A DNA stretch of 64,000 bases from Anaerolineae bacterium (GTDB lineage: Bacteria; Chloroflexota; Anaerolineae; S140-20). The notes below the pieces were generated by a model. The model was not told where the DNA came from, did not search any database, and was given only the letters and a program-made list of their open reading frames with translations. Position numbers and translations under genes: made by a program. The stretch lies in the NCBI GenBank assembly GCA_027021705.1, contig JALUTT010000048.1:83654-147653 (forward strand). The letters run 5' to 3'. This document shows positions 1 through 9,165 of this stretch, in pieces (the stretch's first letter is position 1; each line of letters begins with the position of its first letter).

Positions 1-3000
1 GCCTGAGCACGGCCCTGGATCGGGATGAACTCTTCCGTATCTTGAGTCAGGAACTGGGCCGCATCCTTCCTTTCCACCAGCTCCACATCGCCCTCTACGA
101 CCCTCAGCGGGATTCCGAGCACTGCCGGCTGATCCCTCTAGGGAAGGAAGCCTTCCACGCGGTGCAGACCTTCCCCGTCGAGGATAGCCTGATGGGAGAG
201 GTGTTGCAGAGCGGTCGTCCTCTGTTGTTGAAAGACCTCGCCCTCTCGTCGGAAGAGATGGGGTCGAACCACCAAGACCGCCGCTATCTCCTCCAGACGG
301 GCGTTCGCTCGGCGATCTTCGTCCCCCTGGGAACCCATGGGCGCCAACTAGGGGTGCTGAGCGTGGGCCATGCAGAGGCCGGCTTCTACACCCAGGATGA
401 CCTGGCCCTCTTCCAGCAGGTTGCTGCTCAGGTGGCCGTTGCCCACGAGAACGCCCGCCTCTTCCACGAGACGCGGCGTCGGGCCCGTCAGTTGCAGGAC
501 CTCTACGATGCCGGGCTTGCCCTCTCCTCCATCGCCTCGCTGGAGGAGGTGATGGAGCGGGTTGCTCAAGCGGCTCAGAAGCTGACCCAGGCCAGCCTGA
601 CCACGGTCTTCGTCTACGATGAGGACCTGGGTCGCTATCGTCGGGCCGCCGCGGCCGACGCGCCGGAGCGGCTGGCCTCCTCGCCGGTCATCTACCCCCG
701 TCGGGGAGGCTTCACCGACAAGATCGCCCGCAGCGGTCGCCCCCTCGTCGTCCCCGATGTCGAGGCCGATCCCGACGTGAACCCGGGTGCTCTGGAGTCG
801 GGGATGCACTCCCTGGTGGGAATTCCGATGCAGATGATGGGACAGGAGGCCATCGGGGTCATCTTCTGTGCCCATACCGAGAAGCATTACTTCACCGAGG
901 AGCACGTGGAGACCCTCTCCTTCCTGGCCGTCCAGGCGGCGATCGCGCTGCAGAACGCCCGATCCTTCGCCCAAGTGGAACGCCGGCGGCTGCAACTGGA
1001 GACCGCGGCCGAGGTCGCCCGGGTGACCACCGCCGTTCTGGACCTGGACGAGCTGCTGGAGCGGACGATCAGCCTGCTCCAAGAGCGGTTTGGCCTCTAC
1101 TATGCGGGCATCTTCCTGCTGGACGAGACGGGGTCGTGGGCGGTGTTGCGGGCCGGAACCGGAGAGGCTGGTCGTCGGATGGTGGAGCGTGGACACCGGC
1201 TGCAGGTAGGCGGCAATTCGATGATCGGCTGGTGCACGGCCCATGGAGAGCCCCGCGTGGCCCTGGACGTGAGCAAGGAACGGGTGCGCTTCATCAACCC
1301 GCTGTTGCCCGACACCCGCTCGGAGATGGCCCTGCCCCTCATCAGCCGGGGGCGGGTGATCGGCGCGATGACCATCCAGTCCGATCAGACCGAGGCCTTC
1401 TCCCGGGCCGACGTCGCCACCATCCAACTGATGGCCGACCAGTTGGCCAACGCCATCGAGAACGTCCGGCTCTTCCAGGAGACCCAGACCAGCCTGGTGG
1501 AGACCGAGGCCCTCTATCGGGCCAGCCGGCGGGTGGGGGAGGCCCAGTCCATCGAAAGCGTCCTAGAAGGTGCGGCAGAGTTGGCCGAGGTTCTGATCCC
1601 GGAGGCCGGCAGCATCTCCATCAGCCTGATTACCCGCTGGGACGAGGCCGGAGAGCCGACGGCTGCCGACATTCACGTCCTCTCCCTGGGCACGGGCCAG
1701 CGGATCCCGCTGCCGACCCTCACCGATTTTCCCATCACCGATCGGGAGACGGCGAGGATGGTCCTGGGCGAGCCCGAAGCAGTCGTCATCTACGCCGATG
1801 CCGACGATCCCACCTGTTCTATGCCCGAGGAGGTGCGGGAGGTGATGCACAACAGCGGCACCCGGGGAATGGTCACGCTGGGCCTGCTCGCCCGAGGCCG
1901 CTCCTTGGGATTCCTCTCCTTCAGCAGTTCGGCGCCACTCACCGAGTTCCCGGAACGTCACGTCCGGCGTCTCCGCACCCTGGCCGACCAGATCGCGGTG
2001 ACCCTGGACAACCTGCAGCTCTTCCGGCAGACTACGGAGGCGCTGGAAGAGACCCAGACCTACTATGACATCAGCCGGCAACTGCTGGAGGCCCAGACGG
2101 TGGAAGAGGTGCTGGCGGCTGCGCTGGCCTTTCTGCAGGAGCCGGATGTGGACAGTGCCAGCATCTTCCTGGTGGGTGGACCGCCGGAGGCCCTATGGCT
2201 GGAGCGGGTTGCGGTCAAGGGCATTCGGGAGAGGACCGAAGCCCCGCTGGGCGATCGGATCCCGATGGACCTGTATGGACTAGATCGCCTGCTCGCTCCC
2301 GGTCGTACGGTTGTGGTCGAGGATGTGGCCCGCGATACCCGGATTACGGAGCCGCTGCGGGAGATGTTGACAGAGTTGGGAAAGCGGGCCGTCGTCTTCG
2401 TGCCGATGCAGACGGGGCAGCAGCTGGTAGGGACTTTGCTGGTTGCCCAAAACTATCCCTACCGCTTCTCCAAACGTCAGATCCGGCTCTACGAGGTTGT
2501 GGCGGCCCAGACATCGGTAGCCTTGGAGAACCGGCGCCTGCTGGAGGAGACCCGACGGCGGGCCGTCCAGTTGGAGGCAGCGGCCAAGGTGGGGCGTTCG
2601 GCCACCTCCATCCTGGAGCGCGAGCAACTGCTGCCGGCCGTCGTCGAGTTGATCCGCGACCACTTCGGCTACTACCACGCTCAGATCTTCCTGATAGACG
2701 AGACGGGGCGGTGGGCGGAACTCCAGGCCAGCACCGGTGAGATCGGCAGGATATTGCTGGAGCGAGGACATGCTCTGGAGGTGGGCAGCGACTCGGTGAT
2801 CGGCTGGGTGACCCGTTATGGGCAGCCCCGCGTCGCCCGCGTGGGCGAGGACCGGGTTCACTTCCGCAACGAACTCCTGCCTGATACCCGGGCCGAGTTG
2901 GCCATCCCTCTCATCCTGGGAGGCCGCGTCATCGGAGCCTTGGATGTGCAGAGCACCGACCCCGAAGCTTTCGGCGAGGACGAGGTCGCGGTGCTTCAAC

Positions 3001-4589
3001 TCGTGGCGGACCAGATCACCATCGCCATCGAGAACGCTCGCCTCTACGACGAGCAGAAGCGGGTGGCCGAGAAGCTGCGCGAGGTGGATCGGCTGAAGTC
3101 TCAGTTCCTGGCCAATATGTCCCACGAGTTGCGGACACCGCTGAACTCCATCATCGGCTTCTCGCGGGTGATCCTCAAGGGCATTGATGGTCCCCTCACC
3201 GACCTGCAGCGGCAAGACCTGGAAGCGATTCACAACAGTGGTCAACACCTGCTAGGGTTGATCAACGACATCCTGGACCTCTCCAAGATCGAGGCAGGTC
3301 GGATGGAGCTGGTCTTCGAGGAGGTCAACCTCTACGACATCATCGAAGGCGTGATGGCGACGGCCAAGGCGCTGGTCAAGGACAAGTCCATCGAGCTGCG
3401 CAAGGAAGTTGCCGAGGACCTGCCGACCATTATCGCCGACGGCAAGCGGATCCGTCAGGTGATGCTCAACCTGCTCTCCAATGCGGCCAAGTTCACCGAA
3501 GAGGGATACATCTGCTTGCGAGCCCAGGCCGACGACCGCTACGTGACCATCAGCATCGAGGACACCGGGATCGGTATCCCGCCGGAGAAGCACGAGGAGA
3601 TCTTCCAGGAGTTTACCCAGGTGGATGCCTCTACGACACGCCGTTACGCGGGAACGGGCCTGGGGCTGCCCATCAGCCGCCACTTCGTCGAGATGCACGG
3701 CGGGCGGATCTGGGTGGAGAGCGAACTGGGGAAGGGTTCGACCTTCTACTTCACGCTGCCCATCCGTGGACCCAAGCAGGAGGAGGAGCCTTCTGAGGGC
3801 GAGGGTGTGGCCGTAGAGGTGGGGAAGAAGCTGATCCTGGTGGTAGATGACGACGAGAGCGTCATCACCCTCTACAAGCGCTATCTGGACAAGCGTGATT
3901 ACCAGGTCGTTGGCCTGACAGAGAGTCAACAGGCACTCCAGTGGGCGATGAACCTGAAGCCCTATGCCATCATCCTGGACATCCTAATGCCGCGCAAGGA
4001 TGGCTGGAGTGTAATCCAGGAATTGAAGTCCACGCCGGAGACCCGGGACATTCCCGTGATCATCTGCAGCATCGTGGGTGATACCGGTCGGGGCTTCAGC
4101 TTGGGGGCTGCTGACTACTTGGTCAAGCCGATTATGGAAGACGAACTGCTCAATGCGCTGTCCCGGCTAGACGGACAAGCCCAAGAGAAAGTCCTGATCA
4201 TTGACGACAACCCTGACGACATCCAGTTGCTGCGCCGCATCCTGGAGGAGGGGCAGGGGTGCATGGTGCTGGAGGCCAGCAACGGTGCTGACGGCATCGC
4301 CCTGATCCAGGCCGAGCGTCCTAATCTGGTCATCTTGGACTTGATGATGCCGGAGGTGGATGGCTTCGCCGTGTTGGAGGCGGTTAAGGCCAATCCCTCT
4401 ACTCGGGATATCCCTATCATCGTGGTGACGGCGAAGGACCTCTCCGAAGAGGATCGCCAACGGCTTGCAGGACGCACCATCTCTCTGTTGCAGAAAGGGA
4501 TCTTTCAGCAGGAGGAGCTGCTCGAGGATGTGGCTGAGGCTTTGGCCCGGTTGACGGCTAACCAATCCCGGTCCCAAGAGCAGGCGTAG
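1..4589 (+). CDS. Multi-GAF hybrid sensor histidine kinase (about 6 GAF + HisKA + HATPase_c + 2 REC), 5'-partial
   Basis: Frame is open back to nt 3. Repeated GAF ends (QVAVAHENARL, QLANAIENVRL, QITIAIENARL), H-box FLANMSHELRTPL, N-box NLLSNAAKFT, G-box GTGLGL, and two receivers (LVVDDD..ILDILMP; IIDDN..ILDLMMP). Confidence 0.95.
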   Translation, partial: LSTALDRDELFRILSQELGRILPFHQLHIALYDPQRDSEHCRLIPLGKEAFHAVQTFPVEDSLMGEVLQSGRPLLLKDLALSSEEMGSNHQDRRYLLQTGVRSAIFVPLGTHGRQLGVLSVGHAEAGFYTQDDLALFQQVAAQVAVAHENARLFHETRRRARQLQDLYDAGLALSSIASLEEVMERVAQAAQKLTQASLTTVFVYDEDLGRYRRAAAADAPERLASSPVIYPRRGGFTDKIARSGRPLVVPDVEADPDVNPGALESGMHSLVGIPMQMMGQEAIGVIFCAHTEKHYFTEEHVETLSFLAVQAAIALQNARSFAQVERRRLQLETAAEVARVTTAVLDLDELLERTISLLQERFGLYYAGIFLLDETGSWAVLRAGTGEAGRRMVERGHRLQVGGNSMIGWCTAHGEPRVALDVSKERVRFINPLLPDTRSEMALPLISRGRVIGAMTIQSDQTEAFSRADVATIQLMADQLANAIENVRLFQETQTSLVETEALYRASRRVGEAQSIESVLEGAAELAEVLIPEAGSISISLITRWDEAGEPTAADIHVLSLGTGQRIPLPTLTDFPITDRETARMVLGEPEAVVIYADADDPTCSMPEEVREVMHNSGTRGMVTLGLLARGRSLGFLSFSSSAPLTEFPERHVRRLRTLADQIAVTLDNLQLFRQTTEALEETQTYYDISRQLLEAQTVEEVLAAALAFLQEPDVDSASIFLVGGPPEALWLERVAVKGIRERTEAPLGDRIPMDLYGLDRLLAPGRTVVVEDVARDTRITEPLREMLTELGKRAVVFVPMQTGQQLVGTLLVAQNYPYRFSKRQIRLYEVVAAQTSVALENRRLLEETRRRAVQLEAAAKVGRSATSILEREQLLPAVVELIRDHFGYYHAQIFLIDETGRWAELQASTGEIGRILLERGHALEVGSDSVIGWVTRYGQPRVARVGEDRVHFRNELLPDTRAELAIPLILGGRVIGALDVQSTDPEAFGEDEVAVLQLVADQITIAIENARLYDEQKRVAEKLREVDRLKSQFLANMSHELRTPLNSIIGFSRVILKGIDGPLTDLQRQDLEAIHNSGQHLLGLINDILDLSKIEAGRMELVFEEVNLYDIIEGVMATAKALVKDKSIELRKEVAEDLPTIIADGKRIRQVMLNLLSNAAKFTEEGYICLRAQADDRYVTISIEDTGIGIPPEKHEEIFQEFTQVDASTTRRYAGTGLGLPISRHFVEMHGGRIWVESELGKGSTFYFTLPIRGPKQEEEPSEGEGVAVEVGKKLILVVDDDESVITLYKRYLDKRDYQVVGLTESQQALQWAMNLKPYAIILDILMPRKDGWSVIQELKSTPETRDIPVIICSIVGDTGRGFSLGAADYLVKPIMEDELLNALSRLDGQAQEKVLIIDDNPDDIQLLRRILEEGQGCMVLEASNGADGIALIQAERPNLVILDLMMPEVDGFAVLEAVKANPSTRDIPIIVVTAKDLSEEDRQRLAGRTISLLQKGIFQQEELLEDVAEALARLTANQSRSQEQA

Positions 4590-4591
4590 GT

Positions 4592-4647
4592 CCCCGCCGA
4601 GGTGGGAAAGGATAGCATCGTTGTGCTTCCACCCCGCCGAGGTGGGA
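4592..4647. repeat. 16-bp direct repeat CCCCGCCGAGGTGGGA x2 (40-bp period), each a small hairpin
   Basis: Identical copies at 4592-4607 and 4632-4647 in the kinase/ThrC intergenic region. Confidence 0.8.
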
Positions 4648-4709
4648 TCTACCGGCAACTGGACCTTATCCCCCAAAAGTGCGCGCGGAAGGAAGGAGTC
4701 AAAGAAGCC

Positions 4710-6374
4710 ATGGGCAAGAATCACTTTTGGCTGAAGTGCCCGCAATGCGGCCATCGTTTCCTCTACAAAGGGCTCGTAACAGCCTGCCCTCGTTGCAGCC
4801 ACGCCTGGCTGGACGTCGAGTACGATTACGACGCTCTGGCCCCCCGTCTGCGCCAACTGTTGGAGAGCCGCCCCTTTACCAGCATGTGGCGGTATCGGGA
4901 ACTGCTCCCGGTGCTCCACGACGAGAACATCGTGACGATGGGGGAAGGCGGAACACCGCTGCTCCACAGCCAGCATCTGGGAATGATGCTAGGGCATCCC
5001 TACATCTACGTGAAGGACGAACGGCAGGGACCGACGGGCTCCTTTAAGGATCGTCAGGCTTCCCTGGCTATCTCCCTTATGAAGGAGAACGGGATCACAG
5101 AGGGTGTATTGGCTTCGACGGGCAATGTTGCCATCTCCTACTCCGCCTACTCAGCCCTGGCCGGCATCAAGCTCTGGGCCTTTGTCACCAGCACGGTGCC
5201 GGCCGACAAGATGCGCGAGGTTGCCCTCTATGGCACGGAGGTGATCAAGGTTACGGCGACCTACGATCAGACCAAGGAAGTGGCGGCCCGCTTTGCTCAG
5301 CACAAAGGGCTCTACCTGGATCGAGGCATCCGCGCTTTTGCCAGCCGACAAAGTATGAAGACCATCGCCTACGAGATCGCTGAGCAGTTGGGCTGGCGGG
5401 CCCCCGACTGGTACATCCAGGCCGTCAGCGGGGGCCTCGGCCCTGTCGGCGTCTGGCAGGGCTTCGAGGAACTCTACCGGATGGGGCTGATCCCCAACCT
5501 GCCCAAGCTGGCCAGCATCCAGGTGACCGGCTGCGCCCCGATGGTCCATTCCTTCCGCAAGGGGCTGGCCGAGGTGGAGCCCGTGCTCAACCCGCAGACC
5601 CTCATCGCTACGGTGGCGACGGGTAATCCAGGACCGGCCTATCCCTTCCTGCGGCGCGTCGTGCTGGAGCACGGAGGGGCCTTCGAAGAGGTCACCGACG
5701 AAGAAGCGTTCCGGGCGATGCGGGTGATGGCCCGAATGGAAGGGCTTTCTATGGAACCGGCTGCCGCTATGGCTTTCGCCGGTCTCTTCAAGCTGATCCA
5801 GAAGGGGATCATCCGTAAGGATGAGATCGTCGTCGTCAACTGCTCGGGTCACACCTTTCCCGTGGAGAAGCACCTGCTGGACGAGGAGTGGGTCCACAGC
5901 CTGGAACTGCCCTCGGAAATGGTCGCCGAGCCAGGGCCGGCTGTTCTAAAGGAAGAGGGGCTTCTGGCCTCGCTGGAACGGCTGGACGACCGGGTGCGGA
6001 GTGTGGCCATCATTGACGATGAGCCCGATGCCGTCCGCCTGCTGCGGCGGATCATCCAGGCCAAAGGCGGCTACCAGATCTACGAAGCCTATGATGGTCG
6101 CCAGGGCCTCCAGCTCATCCGCGAGAAGCGGCCTGACCTGGTGCTGCTGGACCTGATGATGCCGGGGATGGACGGCTTTGCCGTCCTGACGGCGATGAAG
6201 GAGGACCCTCAGATCGCGACCATCCCGGTGATCGTCATCACGGCCAAGGACCTGACCACTCAGGAACGGCGTTGGTTAAGCGGGAAGGTGGAGTCCCTGC
6301 TGCAGAAAGGATCCTACATGGACCTGGATGCCCTGGATGCGCTGGTTGGCGAGCTCTCGACGGCGGTAGGCTGA
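4710..6374 (+). CDS. thrC: Threonine synthase-like PLP-dependent enzyme fused to a C-terminal receiver (REC) domain
   Basis: ATG 4710 after AAGGAG. N-terminal CPQC..CPRC ribbon, PLP lysine motif PTGSFKDR, ASTGN, VSGGLG, MEPAAA. C-terminal REC: IIDDEPD..LLDLMMP..ITAK. Confidence 0.85.
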   Translation: MGKNHFWLKCPQCGHRFLYKGLVTACPRCSHAWLDVEYDYDALAPRLRQLLESRPFTSMWRYRELLPVLHDENIVTMGEGGTPLLHSQHLGMMLGHPYIYVKDERQGPTGSFKDRQASLAISLMKENGITEGVLASTGNVAISYSAYSALAGIKLWAFVTSTVPADKMREVALYGTEVIKVTATYDQTKEVAARFAQHKGLYLDRGIRAFASRQSMKTIAYEIAEQLGWRAPDWYIQAVSGGLGPVGVWQGFEELYRMGLIPNLPKLASIQVTGCAPMVHSFRKGLAEVEPVLNPQTLIATVATGNPGPAYPFLRRVVLEHGGAFEEVTDEEAFRAMRVMARMEGLSMEPAAAMAFAGLFKLIQKGIIRKDEIVVVNCSGHTFPVEKHLLDEEWVHSLELPSEMVAEPGPAVLKEEGLLASLERLDDRVRSVAIIDDEPDAVRLLRRIIQAKGGYQIYEAYDGRQGLQLIREKRPDLVLLDLMMPGMDGFAVLTAMKEDPQIATIPVIVITAKDLTTQERRWLSGKVESLLQKGSYMDLDALDALVGELSTAVG

Positions 6375-6400
6375 GCCCGGAGAGACGGCACGGTAGAACG

Positions 6401-6567: not shown

Positions 6568-7920
6568 GTGTCTACCGTGATTCAACGGTTTGCGGAACAA
6601 TCAGCTACCCAGGGTGCAACCCAAGCCCGTGAGGCGCTTGAGGCACGTTATCTCCCCTACTTTGAGGAACGGCTACGCTTGCGTCAGTTGGTTACCTATG
6701 TGCCCAATAAAACTGCGCCCATTCATCGGTGGTTCCAGTACAAAGAGGGTTTCTCTTTCCGGCTTGTCGAGCTCTTTCTACGCGAGTTCAAGGCGGACCC
6801 GGACCGCTATCGGGTCTTTGATCCCTTCGTCGGTTGCGGCACAACCCCTTTGGTTGCCAAGCAGATGGGCTTCGGAGCGTGGGGTATTGACATCCTGCCG
6901 GTAGCCGTTTTCGTCGCCCGGGTGAAGCTCCGTGGCTCAGAGATGTACGATCTGTCCCGCTTGCGATCGGAGATCGAGCGGCTGTTGTCCACGCCTTTCC
7001 ATCCCCCTGCTCTCTCTGCCCCCCAAGACATACAGATTATCCGGTTAGCCTACGACCCTGCGATCCTTGAAGAGATTCTCTTTTTCAAGGAGGAAATCCT
7101 GCGGGTTGAAGATGAGACGCTCCGGGAGTTCCTGCTGCTGGGGCTTATGAGCATTCTTGAGAAGGTGAGTTACACCAGCAAAGATGGTCAGTATCTGCGA
7201 CTACGGCGGGATAAGGAGATACCCGCCGTGCGGGATGTCCTGCGCTCTCAGTTGGAGATGATGTACGATGATCTGGCCGGCCGACCAGCGCAATTGGAAT
7301 TCCCCGGCTTTAGGGTGGGAAGGGCTGACGGTCGTGGTGGTAAACGATGTTACGTCGCTCAAGCGGATGCTCGCTCCTTTGCCGATGCATTTGACGACTA
7401 TGCCGACATCATTATCACCTCTCCGCCCTACCTCAATCGCTACGATTACAGCCGCATCTACAGCTTGGAGTTGTGCTTACAGTTTGTCAATGAGTTTGAG
7501 GAATTAAAGCGGGTGCGTCATAGCCTTTTGCGATCCCACATTGAGTCCCGCAAACCGCCGACCGACGATGTCCATCACCCGGCTTTGGTGGAGATACTGG
7601 ACAACTTGGCAGGACAGGACCTGAACAACCCGCGTATCCCGGTGATGATCAAAGGGTACTTTGAAGATATGAACCAGGTACTGGGGCAACTGGCTCAGGT
7701 ATGCCGCTCGGGGGCACGGGTGGCGTTGGTCGTCGCCAATGCTCGGTTCCACGGCGAGCTCATCCCCGTTGACCTCTTGCTCTCTGATTTGGCGAGGGAG
7801 AACGGATTTGAGGTCGAGCGCGTCATCATCACACGCTACAAGGGCAACTCCAGCCAGCAGATGGGACGTTTCGGTCGCGTGGCAGTGCGAGAGAGCATCC
7901 TCATTTGGAGGCGAGCTTAG
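6568..7920 (+). CDS. DNA amino-methyltransferase (probably N4-cytosine), type II R-M
   Basis: HRWFQYKEGFS, motif I DPFVGCGTT, motif IV TSPPY. Confidence 0.9.
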   Translation: MSTVIQRFAEQSATQGATQAREALEARYLPYFEERLRLRQLVTYVPNKTAPIHRWFQYKEGFSFRLVELFLREFKADPDRYRVFDPFVGCGTTPLVAKQMGFGAWGIDILPVAVFVARVKLRGSEMYDLSRLRSEIERLLSTPFHPPALSAPQDIQIIRLAYDPAILEEILFFKEEILRVEDETLREFLLLGLMSILEKVSYTSKDGQYLRLRRDKEIPAVRDVLRSQLEMMYDDLAGRPAQLEFPGFRVGRADGRGGKRCYVAQADARSFADAFDDYADIIITSPPYLNRYDYSRIYSLELCLQFVNEFEELKRVRHSLLRSHIESRKPPTDDVHHPALVEILDNLAGQDLNNPRIPVMIKGYFEDMNQVLGQLAQVCRSGARVALVVANARFHGELIPVDLLLSDLARENGFEVERVIITRYKGNSSQQMGRFGRVAVRESILIWRRA

Positions 7921-7923
7921 ACG

Positions 7924-9165
7924 ATGGCTCGACGTCGCCACAGGAAGCGGATTGCTGAGCAGCAAACCGGCTATCTGGCAGAGCAACCGCTGCCATCCTT
8001 TGCCAGTACCCCCGACGAGATCCAGCGTGCGGTAGAGCGCAACTCCATCAAGCGTGGCCTTTTCTTCATCCAAAACCTGGTGAGCCTGAATTTCTCCGCC
8101 CTCATCCGGCGCGTTGAGCAGCTCGCCCGGGAGTACGATAAAGAGGAATGGGCCGAGAAGGCGTCTTGGCTCTGGATTGAGACCGATGCCCTGAAGGCAC
8201 TGGACGCCTGTCAGCCCCCTGTGCCCTACCCCTGCTACTTCTGCACGCCTGATATCCTGATCCAGCATCCAGAGCTCGTGATGTACTATCGCAACGTGGC
8301 GATGGTCTCGCGAAAGGTGATGAACGACATGGGGCTGAGCACTAGCATGTATGAGGCTGGTCAGGTGCCACCCCCAGACGTCGCGCTCGATCTGGCCCGG
8401 CATTTCAACCGCATGATCAGTGCCCTGGTGGTCACCAACCCCGTGACGCCTCGGCGTCACCTGGAGATGGCCTACGCCAATCTGGGCGCAAGCTTCGATG
8501 GTTCCTGGCGCAACGAGGTAGGCAGACTGGCCTATGTTGAGGTCATCACGCCTCTGCTGCTCCACCTGCACAGTCTGGGCCATCTGCACAGCGTGGTCTA
8601 CACCCTCAAGGGGCCGGTCTTCGCGTCCGGCGGTGAGACTCTCCATTCCCGTGCGTCTCAAGAGTTGATCGTGGACGAGCAGACCGATCTGGAGGTAGCG
8701 CTGAGGCATCTGGAGGAGCAGCGGGTGGTATACCGGGAGGTCCGGCTGCGGAACGGGAACCGCCTTCTCCTAAATCGCCAAATCACCTGGTACGGTGCCG
8801 ATGGCGAAGCCTACCGGATCGGCCCCGATTTGCTCTCGTCGGGCGACGGGGCAGACATCTTGTGGGGAGGCGAATTGAAGGGCGGAGCTGACCCCGCCGG
8901 CTCGGATGAGCACTGGAAGACCGCGACGCGAACTTTCGAGCGGATCCTGTTGGCCTGCGAACGCACAGGTCGTCCAAAGCCACCTCTTTCATTCATTGCG
9001 ACCATTCTGGTCGAGCGGGTGGCACGCGAGGCTGCCGACTGGTTGAAAGAGGGTAAGTTGGTCTCGGTGTACAACCTCACACAAATCGCCGAGGATCCTG
9101 CCAAACAGCAGCAGTTCCTGAATGACCTCACCACGTTCCTTGGCTATCCGGCCCCCGCCGGATAG
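7924..9165 (+). CDS. Type II restriction endonuclease, BsoBI/AvaI-like catalytic motif with XcyI-like N-terminal region
   Basis: GPDLL..GELKGGADPAGSDEHWKTA matches my recollection of the BsoBI E-x-K..H motif; starts 3 nt after the MTase stop. Confidence 0.8.
   Translation: MARRRHRKRIAEQQTGYLAEQPLPSFASTPDEIQRAVERNSIKRGLFFIQNLVSLNFSALIRRVEQLAREYDKEEWAEKASWLWIETDALKALDACQPPVPYPCYFCTPDILIQHPELVMYYRNVAMVSRKVMNDMGLSTSMYEAGQVPPPDVALDLARHFNRMISALVVTNPVTPRRHLEMAYANLGASFDGSWRNEVGRLAYVEVITPLLLHLHSLGHLHSVVYTLKGPVFASGGETLHSRASQELIVDEQTDLEVALRHLEEQRVVYREVRLRNGNRLLLNRQITWYGADGEAYRIGPDLLSSGDGADILWGGELKGGADPAGSDEHWKTATRTFERILLACERTGRPKPPLSFIATILVERVAREAADWLKEGKLVSVYNLTQIAEDPAKQQQFLNDLTTFLGYPAPAG

Follow-up and report, generated by a model that had tools for sequence, protein, structure and literature searches.

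Two-component systems are mostly seen as switches for genes, motility, and second messengers. CheB, PleD/WspR, and RpfG are response regulators that carry a phosphorylatable receiver (REC) domain and an enzyme domain in one chain, and each is paired with a histidine kinase gene. In these classic enzymatic response regulators, the REC domain is N-terminal. Here we analyze a 64,000-nucleotide (nt) stretch of DNA (the window) from an Anaerolineae bacterium (contig JALUTT010000048.1, positions 83,654 to 147,653 of the forward strand). Near its start, a gene encodes a relative of threonine synthase (ThrC) that ends in a REC domain, and it lies directly downstream of the gene of a giant hybrid histidine kinase. 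The locus is like the systems above in its REC-enzyme chain and its kinase partner. It differs from them in that the output is a fold-type II amino-acid enzyme that uses pyridoxal phosphate (PLP) and in that the REC domain is C-terminal.

When a REC domain is joined to a standard metabolic enzyme, the activity of the enzyme comes under environmental control (Galperin et al. 2018, PMC5847659). The text of that paper does not contain the words pyridoxal, PALP, and threonine. A literature search for a threonine synthase-receiver fusion, made partly on titles and abstract openings, found no description of one. Receiver-enzyme fusions are therefore already known as such, and what appears to be new is an output that is a retooled ThrC-fold PLP enzyme with a C-terminal receiver.

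We suggest, with a probability of roughly 0.58, that the kinase and the enzyme form a conserved two-component module. Its response regulator would be a phospho-switched PLP enzyme, with direct phosphotransfer from the kinase, switched catalysis, and usually export of the product.

A ThrC-like PLP enzyme ends in a complete receiver domain

The list of open reading frames (ORFs) places the enzyme at positions 4602-6374 (+ strand). However, the ATG at 4710, which is M37 of the 4602 ORF, is preceded by a ribosome-binding site, GGAAGGAG, and the alignments of homologues begin at about residue 40 of that ORF. Therefore, the real start is most likely ATG 4710 and not 4602. The predicted product has 554 amino acids (aa) and is encoded at 4710 to 6374 (+), stop codon included.

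By Pfam and motifs, the order of the parts from the N to the C terminus is a zinc ribbon, a fold-type II PLP domain, a linker of about 45 aa, and a complete REC domain. The zinc ribbon, CxxC...CxxC, lies at 4737 to 4796 (C46/C49 and C62/C65 in 4602-ORF numbering), and each of its four cysteines is kept in 58 to 59 of 59 family members. The PLP domain (PF00291, PALP) spans 4932 to 5843, or residues 111-414 of the 4602 ORF, and scores 217 bits against a Pfam cutoff of 35 (E value of 4e-64). It holds the motif PTGSFKDR; the Schiff-base lysine is encoded at 5046-5048 and is a lysine in 59/59 members. The PLP-phosphate loop SGGxGP and many other active-site residues are also conserved among the 59, and the family reads SFKDRQA, ASTGNVAISY, DRGI(R/K)SIAA(R/K)ESMKT, and AVSGG(L/M)GP at its main loops. 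The linker (5844 to 6002) has low model confidence and ends in a conserved helix, EEGLLASLERLD.

The receiver (PF00072, Response_reg) occupies 6003 to 6311, or residues 468-570 of the 4602 ORF, with 78.9 bits against a Pfam cutoff of 30.2 (E value of 4e-22). It holds the D-D acidic pair, the phospho-acceptor D517 in LLDLMMP (4602-ORF numbering; codon at 6150-6152), the threonine of VITAK, and the lysine of LLQKG. In the 59 members, the acidic pair E/D-D is kept in 58, the phospho-acceptor aspartate in all, T/S in all, and the lysine in 58. Both domains thus look functional across the family. An earlier note on the window, made from the sequence alone, had described a fold-II PLP enzyme ending in a complete REC domain, and Pfam, motifs, and residue conservation all bear this description out.

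An AF2 model built on the 59 family members has a mean predicted local distance difference test score (pLDDT) of 85.3. It consists of two confident domains with a disordered linker between them. In a Foldseek search with the model, the top PDB matches were threonine synthases, with a template-modeling (TM) score of 0.85 on the target, and all top matches were of fold type II. A complex prediction with residues 1-385 and 415-554 of the enzyme as separate chains gave a score of 0.00, which weighs for neither side.

The fusion is conserved in relatives

The source genome was assembled from a metagenome and is a draft in 183 contigs, a circumstance that speaks for the possibility of an assembly chimera or read-through artifact. 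If the fusion is no chimera, relatives should carry it as well. We found PF00291 together with PF00072 in 120/120 of the best-listed database clusters (62-97% identical, 507-614 aa), which come from several sources and have the same architecture. Among 301 sampled genomes of the class, about 83 by hand count had a match with an E value of at most 1e-100 that covered the REC part; a raw tally of 152 genomes of this sample also takes in stand-alone ThrC paralogues. In a sample of the phylum, the fusion was present in 33/301 genomes, including 8 from two families that do not belong to the class. Contigs from another study span 3800-6164 and 4827-6400, and they bridge the kinase-enzyme junction and the PALP-REC junction independently. 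The relatives and the bridging contigs refute a chimera or read-through, and we regard its probability as negligible. Of the 80 loci kept from a contig scan with the whole protein, which the generic REC motif dominated, 1 (L007) was a full-length relative.

A kinase with many GAF domains is encoded directly upstream

The kinase frame is open at the window start, and its 3' part (1528 aa) lies at 3 to 4589 (+). With upstream DNA added, the whole kinase has 2599 aa (L006 10444-18243), and its gene begins about 3.2 kb before the window. The GAF array fills 3 to 3095, with 5 to 6 Pfam GAF stretches in the window and 9 to 11 in the whole kinase, and the last GAF abuts the HisKA domain. HisKA (DHp) follows at 3096 to 3299 (78.9 bits) with the H-box SHELRTPLN, and then HATPase_c at 3438 to 3764 (111.6 bits). 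Two receivers complete the protein, REC1 at 3834 to 4160 and REC2 at 4179 to 4541, and together they account for 144 bits of Response_reg over two stretches in Pfam. The protein is a hybrid histidine kinase, since it has HisKA with its histidine, HATPase_c, and a fused REC. A hybrid kinase with at least six GAF domains had been noted directly upstream of the enzyme, and such a kinase is indeed encoded there.

To place this pair in context, we compared 21 loci, one from the source genome and 20 from other genomes of many families, each taken as the 20 kb that surround the gene. A kinase in which GAF abuts HisKA-HATPase_c lies directly upstream on the same strand in 20/21 loci, so the expected conserved GAF-kinase neighborhood was found. 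Among the partner kinases, 18 have complete genes, with products of 863 to 2599 aa, and the genes of the other two run into a contig end. They are variable in their receivers, with two RECs in 11 of the 20, one in 7, and none in 2.

The intergenic spacer between kinase and enzyme has 120 nt (4590 to 4709) and contains two direct repeats followed by the ribosome-binding site before ATG 4710. The repeat is an exact 16-nt sequence, CCCCGCCGAGGTGGGA, with copies at 4592-4607 and 4632-4647, both behind the stop codon of the kinase and ahead of the start codon of the enzyme. The window has no further copy, and 2 of 100 shuffles gave two matches at ≤2 mismatches.

The gene arrangement fits direct phosphotransfer

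The earlier note had proposed a phosphorelay, which in the multistep sense would call for an HPt domain. None occurs in any of the 23 ORFs upstream of the enzyme gene in the 21 loci, the 20 kinases included, and the two partner kinases without any REC have no receiver of their own to take part in such a relay. Among the seven single-REC kinases, two have a glutamate at the phospho-Asp position (L125 10654-13572, -; L127 6067-8976, +), and therefore a relay through those two kinases is impossible. A third (L126 10659-13703, -) is without the acidic pocket. All three single RECs look like pseudo-receivers. The common denominator of the module is GAF-HisKA-HATPase plus the enzyme REC, which is consistent with direct His-to-Asp transfer. 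A multistep relay is thus not supported by the comparison of loci, and direct transfer fits it. Given direct transfer, REC1 and REC2 would be lineage-specific modulators.

The enzyme receiver is a paralogue of the last kinase receiver

The enzyme REC and kinase REC2 are identical at 56/104 positions without gaps, close to the 55/104 that had been counted by hand before. By BLASTP, the enzyme REC matched REC2 at 64/132 positions (E value of 2e-33) and REC1 at 24/80. A profile of the enzyme RECs gave 144 bits with REC2 of this kinase and 52 bits with REC1, which is an ordinary hybrid-kinase receiver. The same held across the family: REC2 of 11/11 two-REC kinases scored 100-150 bits over the full length, and REC1 or single RECs scored 23-57 bits. 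In a tree of the receivers, the enzyme RECs and the kinase REC2s group together (Shimodaira-Hasegawa-like approximate likelihood ratio test [SH-aLRT], 89), apart from the REC1s and single RECs (93). REC2 of this kinase has the DD pair, the phospho-Asp, T, and K, and the residues of the phospho-chemistry are kept in 10 to 11 of the 11 kinases.

We then asked how old this likeness may be. Inside the enzyme-REC/REC2 group, the split is by type and not by genome. The identity of enzyme REC to REC2 is 0.425 within a locus and 0.435 between loci, and 4299/5000 permutations reached the diagonal value. Locus-specific coevolution or gene conversion of the two receivers was therefore rejected. Because the identity within loci does not exceed that between loci, the likeness is best read as an old, coinherited duplication shared by the family, and neither as a recent conversion nor as a locus-specific fit. 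The helix EEGLLASLERLD before the enzyme REC has a match in the kinases, KPIxEDELLxALxRLD, a stretch made up of the last part of REC1 and the linker that leads to REC2; by our assignment, the REC1 part is helix α5. Since the homology begins before the REC domain, this suggests that the enzyme acquired its tail as a copy of the REC1-REC2 end of a kinase.

The enzyme belongs to a lineage apart from housekeeping threonine synthases

The source genome has four ThrC-like genes. One encodes a canonical ThrC (TIGR00260, 302 bits against a cutoff of 167), one a zinc-ribbon ThrC (NF006050, 618 bits against 303), and one an intermediate protein that remains below the cutoff (296 against 303). A separate canonical thrC, whose presence the earlier note had left to be checked, is thus found, together with the zinc-ribbon type. 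The fourth is the fusion, which falls below every NCBIfam cutoff: PRK08197/NF006050, 262.3 < 303; TIGR00260, 163.6 < 167.1; another model, 181.1 < 421; and cysteate synthase TIGR03844, 119.8 < 324.9.

A maximum-likelihood tree, inferred with care from 57 rows and 377 columns, leaves the deep order unsettled. The REC-fused proteins form one clade (support, 100/97), which includes one 420-aa protein that is possibly truncated. A lineage of otherwise stand-alone zinc-ribbon enzymes (86/89) encloses the fused clade, which is apart from the clade of cysteate synthase (100/100), from PRK08197 (99/96), and from the group with canonical ThrC (80/98), and so the enzyme stands outside both ThrC clades. 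The best tree puts the family weakly on the cysteate synthase side (64/31), and a quick tree of 103 rows does so with an SH-aLRT of 97. Sisterhood with PRK08197, a group named after the tree had been seen, costs 28.5 log-likelihood units and was rejected (approximately unbiased test, P = 0.0075).

The substrate loop distinguishes the family most clearly. It reads DRG-I-(R/K)-S-I-A-A-(R/K)-E-S-M-K-T in the fused family, NS-x-NPYRxEGQKT in canonical ThrC, ST-L-x-EPYRxEGKKT in zinc-ribbon ThrC, and EGG-A-(R/K)-NVARRDGMxT in cysteate synthase. The PYRxEG(Q/K)KT of ThrC is thus replaced by AA(R/K)ESMKT, and at the arginine position the family has alanine in 49/59 members and serine in 7/59. We take this arginine to be the one that holds the substrate phosphate in Thermus thermophilus ThrC. 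By alignment mapping, T88, N154, S155, R160, and N188 of the T. thermophilus enzyme are all replaced in the family; these residues reportedly hold the substrate phosphate, according to a structure paper of 2003. After the catalytic lysine, the family has K-D-R-Q and ThrC has K-D/A-R-G, with SFK and ASTGN retained. The PLP-phosphate loop is AVSGGxGP in the family and VGNAGN in canonical ThrC.

These features set the fusion beside several described enzymes. Canonical ThrC (PDB 2ZSJ, 1UIM/1V7C, 2D1F, and 6CGQ) has the same fold (Foldseek E value of about 1e-27; TM score, 0.85; identity, 29-32%), phmmer E values of 1.7e-49 to 5.9e-43, and the same Schiff-base lysine and ASTGN. However, its NSxNPxRxEGQKT and GNAGN loops are replaced in the fusion, which adds the zinc ribbon and the REC domain and belongs to another clade. 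Zinc-ribbon ThrC (NF006050/PRK08197) combines ribbon and PALP as the fusion does and is the best-scoring model, but the proteins of PRK08197 have retained PYRxEGKKT and TGGGTG. Cysteate synthase (TIGR03844; Methanosarcinales; PDB 9K3C, CapA2 of Alistipes) has a zinc ribbon, a partly similar loop, and a fold match (9K3C; E value of 3.5e-25), but its cutoff is far above the score of the fusion, it forms its own clade, and it has other residues after the catalytic lysine. Judged by its loop and its placement, the enzyme is not a housekeeping threonine synthase but a member of a distinct lineage, in which the substrate loop is altered.

Other ThrC-like enzymes are relevant for the position of the added domain. 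In 6/6 scanned proteins of 611-622 aa (P0181, P0186, P0195, P0214, P0227, and P0275), LeuA_dimer, the allosteric domain of isopropylmalate synthase, is at the C terminus of a zinc-ribbon ThrC-like enzyme. P0181, the one that was scored, passes the ThrC cutoffs. The regulatory module is thus at the same place as in the fusion, but it is an amino-acid-binding allosteric domain and not a REC domain, and these proteins form a 100/100 clade beside canonical ThrC. They may be a form of threonine synthase that is regulated by amino-acid feedback. The LeuA-fused clade and the REC-fused clade together indicate that the C terminus of the ThrC scaffold has been used at least two times for a regulatory module, and this repeated use lends support to the REC domain as a regulator of catalysis. 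Plant threonine synthase (PDB 2C2B), which is activated by S-adenosylmethionine, is a precedent for a ThrC-fold dimer switched by an added regulatory part. It differs in using a small-molecule effector and an N-terminal extension rather than phosphorylation of a fused receiver. The family may therefore be viewed as a natural experiment in the retooling of the ThrC scaffold, with a new substrate loop and with a LeuA-type domain or a REC domain in the C-terminal slot.

A transporter gene adjoins the enzyme in many loci

An EamA-type transporter gene adjoins the enzyme gene in 7/20 of the other genome loci. Among six metagenome loci with downstream DNA, it is directly downstream in four and one gene further in one. 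These EamA proteins matched no subfamily model except a generic one (carboxylate/amino acid/amine transporter), and that one far below its cutoff. In 3/20 loci, a REC-HisKA-HATPase protein is encoded downstream instead. The loci encode no DNA-binding regulator, and genes for sulfonolipids or coenzyme M were likewise not seen.

A proposed mechanism and its alternatives

In the proposed module, the GAF domains of the giant kinase would bind a ligand and thereby set HisKA autophosphorylation. The phosphoryl group would pass directly to the aspartate of the C-terminal REC domain of the enzyme, and kinase REC2 would probably be a rival acceptor that serves as an internal sink or timer. Phosphorylation of the enzyme REC would then alter the activity of the ThrC-superfamily PLP domain, most likely via dimer geometry. 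The reaction is probably a β- or γ-replacement or an elimination on an activated amino acid, for example, O-phosphoserine or O-phosphohomoserine. In most relatives, the adjacent EamA-type transporter probably exports the product. There is good comparative evidence for the part of this scheme in which the enzyme would be a response regulator distinct from housekeeping ThrC. The observations of the earlier note thus stand, and so does its idea of a separate, enzyme-type response regulator; its phosphorelay and its cysteate-like product are not yet supported.

Several points weigh against the proposed module. The α4-β5-α5 face of the REC domain is poorly modeled (pLDDT of 41-59). Locus L131 has no upstream kinase (1/21), and the 21 loci come from related genomes and are not independent samples. 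The exporter gene is not adjacent in this window; an orthologue, 65% identical to the EamA of the relatives, is encoded on contig C97 among unrelated neighbors. No biosynthetic partner genes conserved beside the module were found in the loci. Finally, the sole HPt match in the source genome, a stand-alone protein of 106 aa on contig C34 (L150 1483-1803, -), leaves room for a relay. Its gene is directly downstream of that of a 452-aa GAF-HisKA-HATPase kinase.

The enzyme might be a genuine threonine synthase isozyme, an extra, conditional ThrC that converts O-phosphohomoserine to threonine under two-component control. In line with this, its best family scores are with ThrC models (PRK08197, 262 bits; TIGR00260, just under the cutoff), ThrCs are its nearest relatives of solved structure in both sequence and fold, and the Schiff-base lysine and the ASTGN motif are retained. 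However, it is below every curated cutoff, the ThrC arginine is alanine or serine in 56/59 members of a family with a replaced loop, the clade is separate and not sister to PRK08197, and the genome already holds two bona fide ThrC types. We therefore consider an isozyme improbable. A somewhat less probable alternative is that the PLP domain serves chiefly to sense a ligand, so that amino-acid binding would alter the gain or loss of phosphate by the REC domain and the protein would be a metabolite-gated sink or a kinase partner. Single-domain receivers such as DivK act as allosteric kinase partners. The loci without a DNA-binding regulator are compatible with such a role, as is the paralogy of enzyme REC and REC2, which could compete or pair, and the downstream REC-HisKA-HATPase protein in 3/20 loci suggests branched signaling. 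Yet all 59 members have the same catalytic lysine, the same PLP-phosphate loop, and many identical residues in the active site, as expected for a working enzyme, and an exporter as the recurrent third gene fits a product better than it fits a sensor.

The earlier note had also suggested a cysteate-like product. As a subcase of the proposed module, the enzyme could catalyze a cysteate synthase-like β-replacement, in which O-phosphoserine and sulfite or another nucleophile would give a sulfonate or an unusual amino acid. The zinc ribbon is common to both enzymes, and the loop is nearer to cysteate synthase than to ThrC at three positions. Loop features found in both are G-[AI]-[RK], alanine for the ThrC tyrosine, a basic residue next to this alanine on its C-terminal side, and methionine for Gln/Lys. 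The quick tree groups the two with an SH-aLRT of 97, and the best tree does so weakly. Against this, the K-E-L and ASAGNTARAF of cysteate synthases correspond to K-D-R-Q and ASTGNVAISY in the family, the loop arginine common to ThrC and cysteate synthase is alanine in the family, and the loci hold no sulfonolipid or coenzyme M genes that we could see. The score (119.8 against 324.9) and the position outside the 100/100 clade exclude identity with cysteate synthase. A related chemistry is, in our estimate, the least probable of the alternatives that we consider seriously.

The proposed module may be extended to a self-contained device, in which a GAF kinase phosphorylates a ThrC-derived enzyme that makes a nonproteinogenic amino acid and the neighboring EamA transporter exports it. 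In filamentous Anaerolineae, the compound might be a signal between cells or an antimetabolite, or it might serve to handle metals or sulfur. The paralogous REC2 and enzyme REC could, in addition, pair via the receiver dimer face and so tether the enzyme to the kinase. We regard this extension as unlikely, though less so than any of the alternatives above. If such a signal-in, molecule-out reading is true, the output of a two-component system would be solely chemistry, without a transcription factor. If phosphorylation does gate the enzyme, the family would be a clean model for receiver control of a fold-type II PLP enzyme and a route to a new metabolite. A class that is common in sediments, hot springs, sludge, and soil appears to conserve a PLP-enzyme response regulator, and since cultured Anaerolineae carry orthologues, the proposal is testable by ordinary biochemistry.

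Flanking genes and variants of the module

Four genes precede the kinase gene on the same strand. They encode an eight-GAF protein of 1603 aa (L006 5563-10374, +), proteins of 521 aa and 318 aa, and a dCache-HAMP-GAF protein (L006 664-2934, +). Neither the eight-GAF nor the dCache protein has an output domain, and their location on the kinase strand suggests a multisensor operon. In the slot that EamA occupies elsewhere, the window has a methyltransferase-like gene at 6568-7920 (+), with a weak N6_N4_Mtase match, followed by a BsoBI-like endonuclease gene at 7924-9165 (+). The two are a probable type II restriction-modification pair.

A metagenome scan for the stand-alone sister group with P0137 gave 16 loci. 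Of the 8 inspected, 7 belonged to the fused family and 1 (L158) had a stand-alone PALP protein (39% identical) with uninformative neighbors. In locus L134 (3713-13262, -), the genes of a TPR-GAF kinase, a PALP-REC-REC protein (703 aa), a PRK08197-type ThrC, and a TPR-PAS-GAF kinase lie in a row. The fused enzyme is thus beside a true ThrC type, which has an N-terminal extension of about 115 aa. P0146 (492 aa) has HATPase_c and PALP in one chain and could be a fusion of kinase and enzyme or else part of a miscalled gene. Apart from the module, an Anaerolineae genome encodes a eukaryote-type topoisomerase IB of 590 aa (L122 12120-13892, +), with Topoisom_I_N, Topoisom_I, and Topo_C_assoc domains.

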